Shown here one piece after another: positions 36,001-39,000 of a stretch of DNA of 48,521 bases (its first letter is position 1; the number at the start of each line of letters is the position of its first letter). This DNA is from a virus (Duplodnaviria > Heunggongvirae > Uroviricota > Caudoviricetes). Location: positions 1 through 48,521 of IMG/VR virus record IMGVR_UViG_2511231131_000009, one strand, 5' to 3'. A program made the position numbers.

Positions 36001-39000
36001 ATATAGGGCCAAGACCTAAATTCCAGGCACGGCGACAATCTTCTGCCACTCGCTCAATATCATTCGGAGTAAGTAATTCAGCCCCTGGGTGCTCCGGTAT
36101 GTTAACGTCAGGAAATTCGATTTCACCTTCAACAGCAGAAATTATAATATTAAGAATCTCAGCCCTGGCCAATACACTATTAGTCAGCGTTTGAGTCCTG
36201 GACTTCTTACTCCGAAAATGGCAGACATCACTTTCCAGAGCGTATTTTCGTTCAGTAAAAAGAAAACTGGACTTAATCATAAGCGCTGAAGATATTAACT
36301 CAAGACATTGCTCCGATGGCCTGCACCCCTTCTCCAGTTTGCTAACAAATTGCTTTGTCTTGCCAATTTTTTCGGCTAACTCTTCACAAGAAAGCCCAAC
36401 AGCCATTCTCGCTAGTTTGAGCTTATCACCCCGATACTCAGTGAAGTTATTCACCTGATGTTCCATCACTGCTCACATCCAAATCTTTATCCTTCGTACG
36501 CCGACGAAGAGGCACCTTATTAATCTCCGCTTCGTCAGGGAGTGTGTTATAATCAAGAGGCATAAGCGGCATCGATGCTGTAGATTGATGAGAAACTATA
36601 CTAATCTGAGCACCATAAGTATTAAATCCAACAAGAGCTACCTCCCAACGAGGCAGTGTGGACTCTAATTCACCATCGCCCTCTTCGGATAAAAAAGGCT
36701 CAGCTATGACTCGCCATGTAATATCTTGCTCAGCCTCAACATCACCAAACAATGAGAGCTGCTCATACTCTACTTTATTTCGACGCAGACGATGTTTCTT
36801 TTTGGGGTTATTAATGCAATCTTTGGTAAATTGTAGCGGAACTTTATTTAAAGCAACTACATAGTCCACCCCCTTGGAAATCATCTCAAGGCCAGGAATT
36901 GCATCTTCATTTTGAATAAGATGATTTCTGACCCAATCATAAGCCCTTACACCTTCAGACCAGTTGCTGTCTAATGCGTGCTTATGATAGTACAGCTGCT
37001 CAAGTACGTTAGCGATCTCCGCCAACAAGTGGCGAACATAGTTTTCAGCAAGATAAGGTTGAAATTCCCAACAAGGAGCTAACTGATTTTCATTCATTTC
37101 AAGTTTCGCTTTTTTTAGAATTCGCAAACCACATATTTTCGCATTTTTCTATTTTTGTCAACCAGGCTAATGCAAAAACCCGCCGAAGCGGGTTAAGTGC
37201 GGGTGCGTTGAGGATGCCTGGCACATCAGAGGTGGCGGGAGATTACTCCCCCGCCGGGTCTCTTACTCCTCAGGTTCGTAAGCTGTGAAGACAGCGACCT
37301 CCGTCTGGCCGGTTCGGATTCGTACCTCGCAGAGGTCTTTCCTCGTTACCAGTGCCGTCACTATGACGGTTAAACAGATGACGATCAGGGCGATTAACAT
37401 CGCCTTTTGCTGCTTCATAGCCTGCTTCTCCTTGACCTTTTGGTCCGTAAGAGGCTAATCTCTATGTGTCGCATAGATATGGCCTCAGATTAATGTTAAG
37501 CGTCTTGCAGGACGCGTAATGTTAACTGGGGCTTTTCTCTATCTGCCTTTTGGTGTTCATGCCTGAGGCAGATAGCCTCAAGCACCCGCAGCAATTCTAC
37601 TTAACTCCCGTCACCTCGCCAATATAAAATCAATCAGAAAGGCGATCCATAAGAACAATAGCAAGACAATAAATTGCCACTACAGCCGCAATAGCCAGCG
37701 CGCATTTGAGAACCAGCACGATAACCTCCTGTATTGGACGTACACCAGCTCTGATAAATATGAGGCTGCCTCTTTAACTTCGCATTGCGCTACCAATCAA
37801 TAAAATCAGTGATGTTATCCAACCTAATTACAGTAACTTCCCGTCTCAACTGGTTTTTCCAATATATCTCACGAGCGTTTTGTTCACCAGCACCGCTCCA
37901 CTCAATTACTCTTAAAGGCTTAGAGGTTAGGTAAGGTCGAATAAGCAGGTTAAGGTGAATATCGAGACCAGAGTAACCAAACAATATTATTTCTTCTGAT
38001 TCAAATAATGCAAACTGCAAATAATCCCAGTACGTAGAAAGAACATTAGATGCTGCTATAACTGACGGTTTTCTTTTTATATGAGTTAACACTATATGCT
38101 CACTAGGTTCATCTATGTCAAGAGTAAGTTGTGAGCGTGAAAGTTTTAAAACATTTTCATGCTGATTAATAAATAGTGGTGAACCATGCAAGTGCAAATA
38201 ATAACCAAACCTACGATTGTATTTCCGTTCGAGCGCTGCAGAGGAAAATCCGTGGCTTAGCATCCCATCAACTAAAACCCCATCATACCCGTTGAATATA
38301 TCATTATCTATGAATGAATTGTATAATAATTTGTCATAGTTTAATGTCGCGATATGTGAGTGTGTGTTCTTTACAAACTCCACAAGCGCATTTTCGAATC
38401 TTTGTGGCAAACCTTTATCGTAATTATGCAACCTGGTTGCAACTTTGTGAATATAAGTGGCGGTAATTTTGGGGAAGTTTAGTCCATCTTCAGTAAGCCA
38501 ATGCACGTTCCCCTCTCCAATTTGAGCAAGAGCTTTACAATATGTGACAGCCTGGTGAAGGGTATCCAACTCATGTTCTCCTTCTGGTGGACCTTGCCGC
38601 TGAAGACAACGCTCGATAAGTTGCTTGTGGATATCTTTTAAAAAATTGGGGCGATGCCAAATTTCTTCCAACGCTCTGTCTAAGGAGAAGTGAGCAGGAT
38701 CTAAAGCCATACCGAGACCGTTGCCGAATATTATTAATTTTCTTGCCATATAGGGGGACTCATATTGGAATAACGCTGGATAGCGTAGCGCGATACGCTT
38801 AAGTTTAGGATTAATAGACATTCCGTTTGATTACACTCGTTATTACAAACTTGCATGCAAAGAAGCCCAAGCTGTTAGGTAAACAGAGACCGCAGTGGCA
38901 AGATAATCTAGATATAGCCTATAAAATCCAACAACAAATAGCGGCCTGTTTTCTATGACTTTTCTTTTCCCTAAATATCACTTATCTAATAAAATGCAAT

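Follow-up and report, generated by a model that had tools for sequence, protein, structure and literature searches.

The region 37172-37622 of the Caudoviricetes sequence IMGVR_UViG_2511231131_000009 (48,521 nucleotides (nt), analysed over its whole length and called the window below) is very probably a complete type I toxin-antitoxin module of the hok/mok/sok kind, located in a lambdoid prophage of Escherichia coli O55:H7. A test segment of the window is 100% identical to the E. coli O55:H7 chromosomes DEC5D and TB182A, and RefSeq annotation places the region inside a lambdoid prophage. The sequence family of the module, its sequence elements (Sok and its promoter as candidates), their predicted folds and their conservation are established in the present analysis. 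The hokD locus, as the toxin gene is named, is already annotated and is an ordinary member of a well-known RNA-controlled toxin-antitoxin family; the two minor points that go beyond existing annotation are the uneven diversity along the locus and a mok allele that consists of a short upstream open reading frame (ORF).

The toxin gene and its relatives

The toxin gene, hok (hokD), lies at 37263..37418 on the minus strand, which is the mRNA sense of the whole module. It starts with ATG and encodes, stop codon included in these coordinates, a protein of 51 amino acids (aa), MKQQKAMLIALIVICLTVIVTALVTRKDLCEVRIRTGQTEVAVFTAYEPEE, with a single transmembrane helix. Pfam family PF01848 (HOK_GEF) matches residues 6-47 of this ORF over the full model with 82.9 bits (cut-off 22), and PHROG 251, 'MokW-like host killing', matches it with E=2.8e-33, both of which identify it as a small membrane toxin of the Hok/Gef family. 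The NCBIfam Hok subfamily models also match it, at a score under their strict cut-offs (48.5 vs 73). RefSeq labels the identical sequence 'type I toxin-antitoxin system toxin HokD' (WP_000813254.1), and homologous places number in the thousands in E. coli genomes; within the window, a tblastn search found this single hok and no second one elsewhere. The sequence-only reading of this DNA had proposed such a Hok/Gef ORF between a SIR2 gene and a two-gene cassette, with relBE missing upstream, and each of these points holds: the SIR2 gene (37790-38821) and the cassette (35363-37127) were both placed, and tblastn against the whole window found no RelB or RelE homologue anywhere (best E=0.4). No frameshift or premature stop interrupts hok, and a conserved leader precedes it.

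The same reading had named the hokD gene (relF) of the K-12 prophage Qin as the match. This is right for the coding sequence (CDS), which is identical in K-12 at 156/156 nt, and the 3' untranslated region (UTR) of K-12 hokD is nearly identical as well, including the fold-back element fbi and the terminator described below. The Qin prophage and the window prophage are also of the same kind, with DicF and dicB downstream of hokD in both. Upstream, the homology with K-12 begins 16 nt before the ATG, at AGGAGAAGCAGGCTATG, in the Shine-Dalgarno (SD) region of hok, and beyond this point K-12 has the end of relE. There, relE-relB stand in place of the promoter, tac, ucb, mok and sok, and hokD is left without a leader or an antitoxin RNA of its own. 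The K-12 gene is therefore a 5'-truncated derivative, and the locus of the window the intact form. K-12 hokD is said to have been inactivated by rearrangement.

For comparison, we used 80 IMG/VR loci that encode an identical Hok protein, of which 77 bear a leader (78 leader-bearing loci with that of the window). In the remaining three (L036, L040 and L081) the leader is absent. The junction upstream of hok is of the K-12 relE type in L036 and L040; in L081, the sequence ahead of the same joining point, AGGAGAAGCAGG, is a third and unrelated one. These leaderless loci suggest that the hok SD region is a recurrent recombination breakpoint.

Judged by sequence, the closest characterised relative is not K-12 hokD but the hokW/mokW/sokW locus of the Stx2 phage 933W and the Sakai prophage Sp5 (AF125520), likewise carried on a lambdoid prophage. 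It is 92.6% identical to the window at the DNA level over 417 nt, that is, over the whole transcription unit, and its toxin agrees at 47 of 51 residues, the four that differ in HokW being C-terminal. The promoter -10, tac, ucb, the Sok hairpin, the hok SD and fbi are common to both loci, whereas their position in the phage genome and their neighbouring genes differ. HokW is toxic and is neutralised by sokW RNA, making this a functional type I toxin-antitoxin system (Takada et al. 2021, PMC8621323). After mitomycin C treatment, sokW RNA disappears and HokW, produced on induction, is found at the inner membrane; when hokW/sokW is lacking, only half as much Sp5 phage is released (PMC8621323).

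The hok/mok/sok (parB) system of plasmid R1 serves as the type of the family. It is plasmid-borne, the locus of the window prophage-borne, and the two Hok proteins share 42% identity. The order of the elements is the same in R1 (PMC9841398) and in the window: tac, ucb, mok SD, mok AUG, a hairpin preceding the hok SD, hok and fbi. The promoter of the cis-antisense Sok RNA lies over the hok SD region in R1, as does the putative one in the window. Every hok/sok element defined in R1 has its counterpart in the window, a putative one in the case of Sok and its promoter.

The hok mRNA and its fold-back elements

Rfam family RF01794 matches 37416-37587 on the minus strand over the full model (positions 1-157), with 107.5 bits against a gathering score of 59 (E=1.4e-23), so that a conserved, structured hok leader is present. 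This match reads in the mRNA sense and runs as far as the hok AUG, and the plus strand scores only 16.5 bits; although the family is named 'sok', it models the mRNA-sense leader, and the match therefore marks the locus and not the antitoxin strand. Other low scorers in the region (ceN48, rsmX and isrK, together with the plus-strand sok match) are far under their gathering scores and were regarded as noise.

Upstream of the leader, a consensus scan returned one sigma-70-like site, the sole one on the minus strand of the region, which we take as the putative hok/mok promoter (37594..37622). It consists of a -35 TTGGCG (37622-37617) and a -10 TAGAAT (37599-37594) separated by a 17-nt spacer, with 9/12 matches to the consensus. 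The -10 is kept in most related loci despite differing upstream DNA, with a few single-base variants. Transcription would start at about 37587, 7 nt past the -10, where the Rfam model has its position 1. At the other end, a terminator scan placed an intrinsic terminator at 37172..37194, with the hairpin AACCCGC-UUCG-GCGGGUU (7 pairs, 5 of them G-C) followed by a run of U, which is conserved in the alignment of 54 relatives. The full-length hok mRNA would thus extend over 37172..37587, about 416 nt.

This full-length mRNA is predicted to be translationally inert. Its minimum free energy (MFE) fold reaches -172.4 kcal/mol (z=-7.78 vs 100 shuffles), and pairs nt 1-12 at the 5' end with fbi near the 3' end; the same closed fold is the RNAalifold consensus of the 54 unique relatives. 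The 5' partner is tac (translational activator, GGGUGCUUGAGG, 37576..37587) and the 3' partner fbi (fold-back inhibitory, CCUCAACGCACCC, 37201..37213), complementary to tac except for one bulged C. All pairs of this 12-bp tac-fbi helix are kept in 54/54 related mRNAs, and the long-range closure of the mRNA is therefore found both in the predicted fold and throughout the relatives. Compared with R1, the two elements differ in a complementary manner (GGGUGC/GCACCC in the window, GGCGC/GCGCC in the R1 type). Compensatory changes are found among the 54 mRNAs at four pairs other than those of tac-fbi. In the same MFE fold, the ucb or anti-SD box (AAAAGCCCC, 37528..37536) covers the ribosome binding site of mok, its GCCCC (37532-37528) pairing with the mok SD region CUGAGGC, and this helix shows compensatory changes in three sequences (columns 68:106, 70:103 and 71:102). 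The fold-back elements that the sequence-only reading had expected in the leader are thus there.

When the last 44 nt are removed, the 5' end is freed and, in the MFE fold of the 3'-truncated mRNA, tac lies in a local 5' hairpin. A conformation in which tac pairs with ucb is predicted 4 kcal/mol above this minimum, and it would free the mok SD into the hairpin GAGGC...GCCUC. Refolding induced by truncation is consistent with the closed-to-open switch of R1 (PMC9841398). The MFE fold of the truncated mRNA was also tried as a test of tac-ucb pairing itself; as it gave the local 5' hairpin instead, it neither confirmed nor refuted the refolding step.

Two further structures flank the hok CDS. In the 3' UTR, a hairpin at 37234..37255 (GGCGGGGGAG-UAAU-CUCCCGCC) is present in the full-length and truncated folds alike, and its pairs are kept, with G-U/A-U/G-C variation, across the 54 sequences (columns 341-362). 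It is likely to form the protective end of the processed, truncated mRNA, by analogy with R1, in which the truncated form Tr-hok becomes less stable when its last 3' stem-loop is mutated (PMC9841398). On the 5' side, the hok SD, AAGGAG (37428..37433), is preceded by a small conserved hairpin, GACC-AAAA-GGUC, which covaries, being UGCC-GAAA-GGCA in 933W and GCGC-UUU-GCGC in the R1 type, a compensatory difference. The boundaries first proposed for the locus, 37263-37620, covered the coding sequence with its leader and all but a little of the hok promoter; they left out the 3' UTR (37172-37262) and with it fbi, the 3' hairpin and the terminator.

mok, Sok and a hypervariable segment

Between ucb and hok lies mok, an upstream ORF of 19 codons (MRHIEISLLRTKRSRRSRL) at 37415..37474 on the minus strand. 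Its AUG at 37474 is the positional homologue of the annotated mokW start in 933W, and its UGA (37417-37415) overlaps the AUG of hok (AUGA). The mok SD, GAGG (37486-37483), and the mok start fall within the sokT/dcb hairpin GAGGC...GCCUC (37451..37486), a local fold of -12.9 kcal/mol (z=-3.8) with the mok AUG in its stem. With its SD, its AUG, its 19 codons and the stop-start overlap, mok thus reaches the initiation region of hok.

The reading frame of mok varies among the 78 leader-bearing loci. The mok AUG lies 57 nt upstream of hok and in frame with it in 66/78 of them, representing a dozen different alleles, so that 'Mok' is a 70-aa extended Hok, and the same is true of MokW in 933W, a 70-aa in-frame extension of HokW starting 57 nt upstream. 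The other 12/78, including the window, have an AUG located 56 nt upstream and out of frame, which opens the 19-codon upstream ORF that ends on the hok AUG. The mok of R1 is 70 codons long, with its start 58 nt ahead of hok and in a third frame (positions 116-118 and 174-176; PMC9841398). Saturation mutagenesis of R1 has shown that translation of mok is required only as far as the hok initiation region (PMC9841398). By this rule the overlap of the mok UGA with the hok AUG should still deliver ribosomes to hok in the window, and the efficiency of the coupling could differ from that of the in-frame arrangement. An 81-nt probe across mok and sokT found 9 records at >=99% identity and 779 at 95-99% identity among E. 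coli complete genomes; its occurrence in about 790 complete-genome records indicates that the window-type allele is stably maintained.

On the opposite strand, a Sok antisense RNA of about 69 nt can be placed at 37468..37536 (plus strand), with ends transferred by alignment from the 71-nt sokW of 933W, where mokW, hokW and sokW are all annotated. This candidate would be the Sok-like RNA that had been anticipated opposite the leader. Its predicted 5' tail is single-stranded and could pair with the region of the mok start, and a long hairpin and a U-run follow; the terminator hairpin folds with -32.2 kcal/mol (z=-5.47) and is about 16 nt longer than the Rfam consensus. In one allele group (e.g. 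L022 and L083) the Sok hairpin is about 21 nt shorter. A putative Sok promoter was read by eye at 37432..37461, with a -35 TTGACC (37432-37437), an 18-nt spacer and a -10 TAATCT (37456-37461). It lies upstream of the annotated 5' end of sokW and, when aligned, at the position of the homologous R1-type site, TTGCGC-17-TATCCT.

Diversity is distributed very unevenly along the locus. In the 30 columns at the mok start, which on the other strand are the 5' tail of Sok, it reaches 0.237, against 0.008 in the hok CDS, making the mok-start/sokT segment about 30 times more variable than the CDS among loci with identical Hok protein; most of the leader and the 3' UTR show values of 0.04-0.08. This segment corresponds to 37451-37486 in the window and lies around positions 735-775 in loci L005-L084. 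At least 14 alleles of it exist, and for each of 14 a hairpin is predicted, with energies between -10.3 and -13.5 kcal/mol (about -12 kcal/mol in most) and with the mok AUG in the stem in every allele. It also differs between 933W and the window, and the 5' recognition tail of Sok with it. We tentatively suggest that these roughly 30 nt could act as an allelic 'specificity cassette', kept diverse by selection that prevents co-resident prophage hok/sok copies from neutralising one another, much like immunity types. The window would carry one such type, in which mok has changed from an in-frame N-terminal extension of Hok to the short upstream ORF, so that Hok could be made only by reinitiation; this proposal is more likely to be wrong than right.

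Proposed mechanism, alternatives and setting

The transcript ends, 3' processing, the instability of Sok, RNase III cleavage, toxicity and the biological trigger are here modelled on R1 hok/sok and 933W hokW/sokW. The minus-strand promoter (37622-37594), of moderate strength, would produce a stable mRNA of about 416 nt in which tac (37587-37576) pairs with fbi (37213-37201) and ucb covers the mok SD, so that the full-length molecule would be neither translated nor bound by Sok. Slow exonucleolytic trimming from the 3' end would then strip the terminator and fbi, letting the 5' end refold and expose the mok SD and the sokT hairpin. As long as the prophage is transcriptionally active, the short-lived Sok RNA (plus strand, about 37468-37536) would pair with this region and block mok translation, the duplex being passed on to RNase III. 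Once Sok synthesis stops, be it through prophage induction, loss of the element or shut-off of transcription by an infecting phage, the 19 codons of mok would be translated, and ribosomes terminating at the mok UGA, which shares bases with the hok start codon, would reinitiate on hok. The 51-aa Hok would then insert into the inner membrane and collapse the membrane potential. By analogy with hokW/sokW, such a system probably helps an induced prophage to lyse the cell and release phage, keeps the prophage stable, or does both; a contribution to abortive infection, within a hotspot of defence genes, is possible.

Several points weigh against this interpretation. The mok of the window, out of frame and 19 codons long, is unlike the 57-nt in-frame form of most loci. 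The -10 of the putative Sok promoter is weak (3/6) and was missed by the consensus promoter scan. Within the hokD/hokW clade there is no covariation in tac-fbi, the helix being invariant in all 54 relatives, and in the truncated mRNA the tac-ucb stem is 4 kcal/mol less stable than the local 5' hairpin of the MFE fold. The chromosomal genes hokA, hokB and hokC have, where tested, given no post-segregational killing, as far as the summary in bioRxiv 10.1101/2025.08.07.668861 conveys it. Finally, Hok has a single periplasmic cysteine (C30), and full toxicity may need RNA editing of Tyr47. At the codon of this residue lies a UACG motif (37277..37280, minus strand), a possible TadA adenosine-to-inosine (A-to-I) recoding site that would turn Tyr into Cys (A at 37279); the preprint reports A-to-I editing of hokD mRNA at the Tyr codon that corresponds to Cys46 of HokB (bioRxiv 10.1101/2025.08.07.668861).

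Some of these points could be taken to mean that the locus, intact in structure, is a functionally silent relic, the 56-nt, out-of-frame mok weakening or abolishing its coupling to hok. The window type of mok is indeed the exception among many diverged alleles, the K-12 copy of the same gene has lost its entire leader, and the same summary reports hokA, hokB and hokC as without a rifampicin response as well. However, none of the parts is damaged here: the -10 of the promoter, both SDs, tac, ucb and fbi are as intact as the hok ORF and the Sok hairpin. A mok stop overlapping the hok AUG is a classic coupling arrangement, sufficient under the R1 rule by which mok need be translated only up to the hok start (PMC9841398). 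Moreover, the hok CDS is unchanged in the roughly 790 records that carry the allele, and the sister locus hokW/sokW is active (PMC8621323). We therefore consider a silent relic unlikely. That there is no gene at all, the ORF and hairpins being chance features, might be entertained on account of the small size of the ORF, which at 51 aa is below usual ORF cut-offs; this idea is refuted by the Rfam and Pfam matches, which like that of PHROG are well over threshold, and by the 100% identity to a named K-12 gene, hokD, with thousands of homologous places in E. coli. Folding z-scores of -7.8 and -5.5 likewise make chance a virtually negligible explanation.

A different question is whether the same mechanism serves mainly for anti-phage abortive infection, in a prophage defence hotspot, rather than for prophage maintenance or as a lysis aid. 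The SIR2-family gene upstream and the RmrT/RmrA (Rosmer) pair downstream speak for it, as does the lowered plating of T4 on cells with R1 hok/sok on a high-copy plasmid, a result cited in PMC8621323. A large survey found no hok enrichment beside defence systems (bioRxiv 10.1101/2025.08.07.668861), though, and the sole direct data on the closest relative show a role in favour of the phage, in Sp5 release (PMC8621323). In the ORF set of the window, PADLOC models match only the neighbouring genes. A main role in abortive infection thus seems rather improbable, if a little less so than the loss of function considered above, and a complete module that assists or stabilises its prophage remains the preferred reading.

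The neighbouring genes are as follows. Downstream of hok, the hairpin-bracketed cassette at 35363-37127 matches the Rosmer anti-phage system, its two minus-strand ORFs matching RmrT (36447-37127; PADLOC E=6.5e-25) and RmrA (35363-36469; PADLOC E=6.2e-105), the latter an XRE-HTH plus ImmA/IrrE-type protein. Upstream, the SIR2-family gene (37790-38821, minus strand) is matched weakly throughout, by Pfam SIR2_2 with 26.1 bits and by the PADLOC models Aga_SIR2 and PDC-S21 (E about 1e-5 to 1e-6). In phage Tritos, the same RmrT/RmrA pair follows hokD. The slot upstream of hokD holds a different gene in related phages (in Tritos TRITO_38, in opposite orientation); by this comparison, the contents of the upstream slot appear to vary.

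Just upstream of the hok promoter, an unannotated hydrophobic ORF of 29 aa (VLVLKCALAIAAVVAIYCLAIVLMDRLSD, 37630-37719, minus strand) begins with GTG, 7 nt past AGGAGG. It is open in 14/14 carrier loci, with a pN/pS of about 0.47, and its segment is found in 1054/5426 complete E. coli genomes and annotated in none of them. Searches of Pfam, NCBIfam, PHROGs and PADLOC returned no match. It could be a real small membrane protein travelling with hokD. A promoter-like sequence on the plus strand, TTAACT-18-TAAAAT (37601-37630), considered as an antisense promoter for this ORF, was dismissed as a chance occurrence, its -10 being unconserved (TGAAAT or GTGAAA in relatives).

Elsewhere, RefSeq annotates in the prophage a Q antiterminator, RusA, DUF968/YdfU, Cro/CI-type regulators, dicB, an exonuclease and an integrase. 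The RNA genes of the window include STnc100 (29954-30144, minus strand, 138 bits), a prophage tRNA cluster (Arg-tct, Arg-tcg and Met/Ile-cat; 30221-30470, minus strand), DicF (43092-43143, plus strand; Rfam, 77 bits) and a tRNA-Ser(cga) at 47541-47630 (minus strand), which adjoins the integrase gene and is probably the attachment site.

With a RefSeq hokD annotation for the exact sequence and a 92.6%-identical hokW/sokW already characterised, the locus adds little to the catalogue of the family. It does show a toxin-antitoxin system flanked by SIR2 on one side and Rosmer defence genes on the other, within a prophage hotspot, and it offers a clean example of the intact locus that K-12 keeps only as a leaderless hokD/relF behind relBE. 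Its short mok upstream ORF, carried by a common allele, is moreover a natural test of the rule, drawn from R1, on how far mok must reach.

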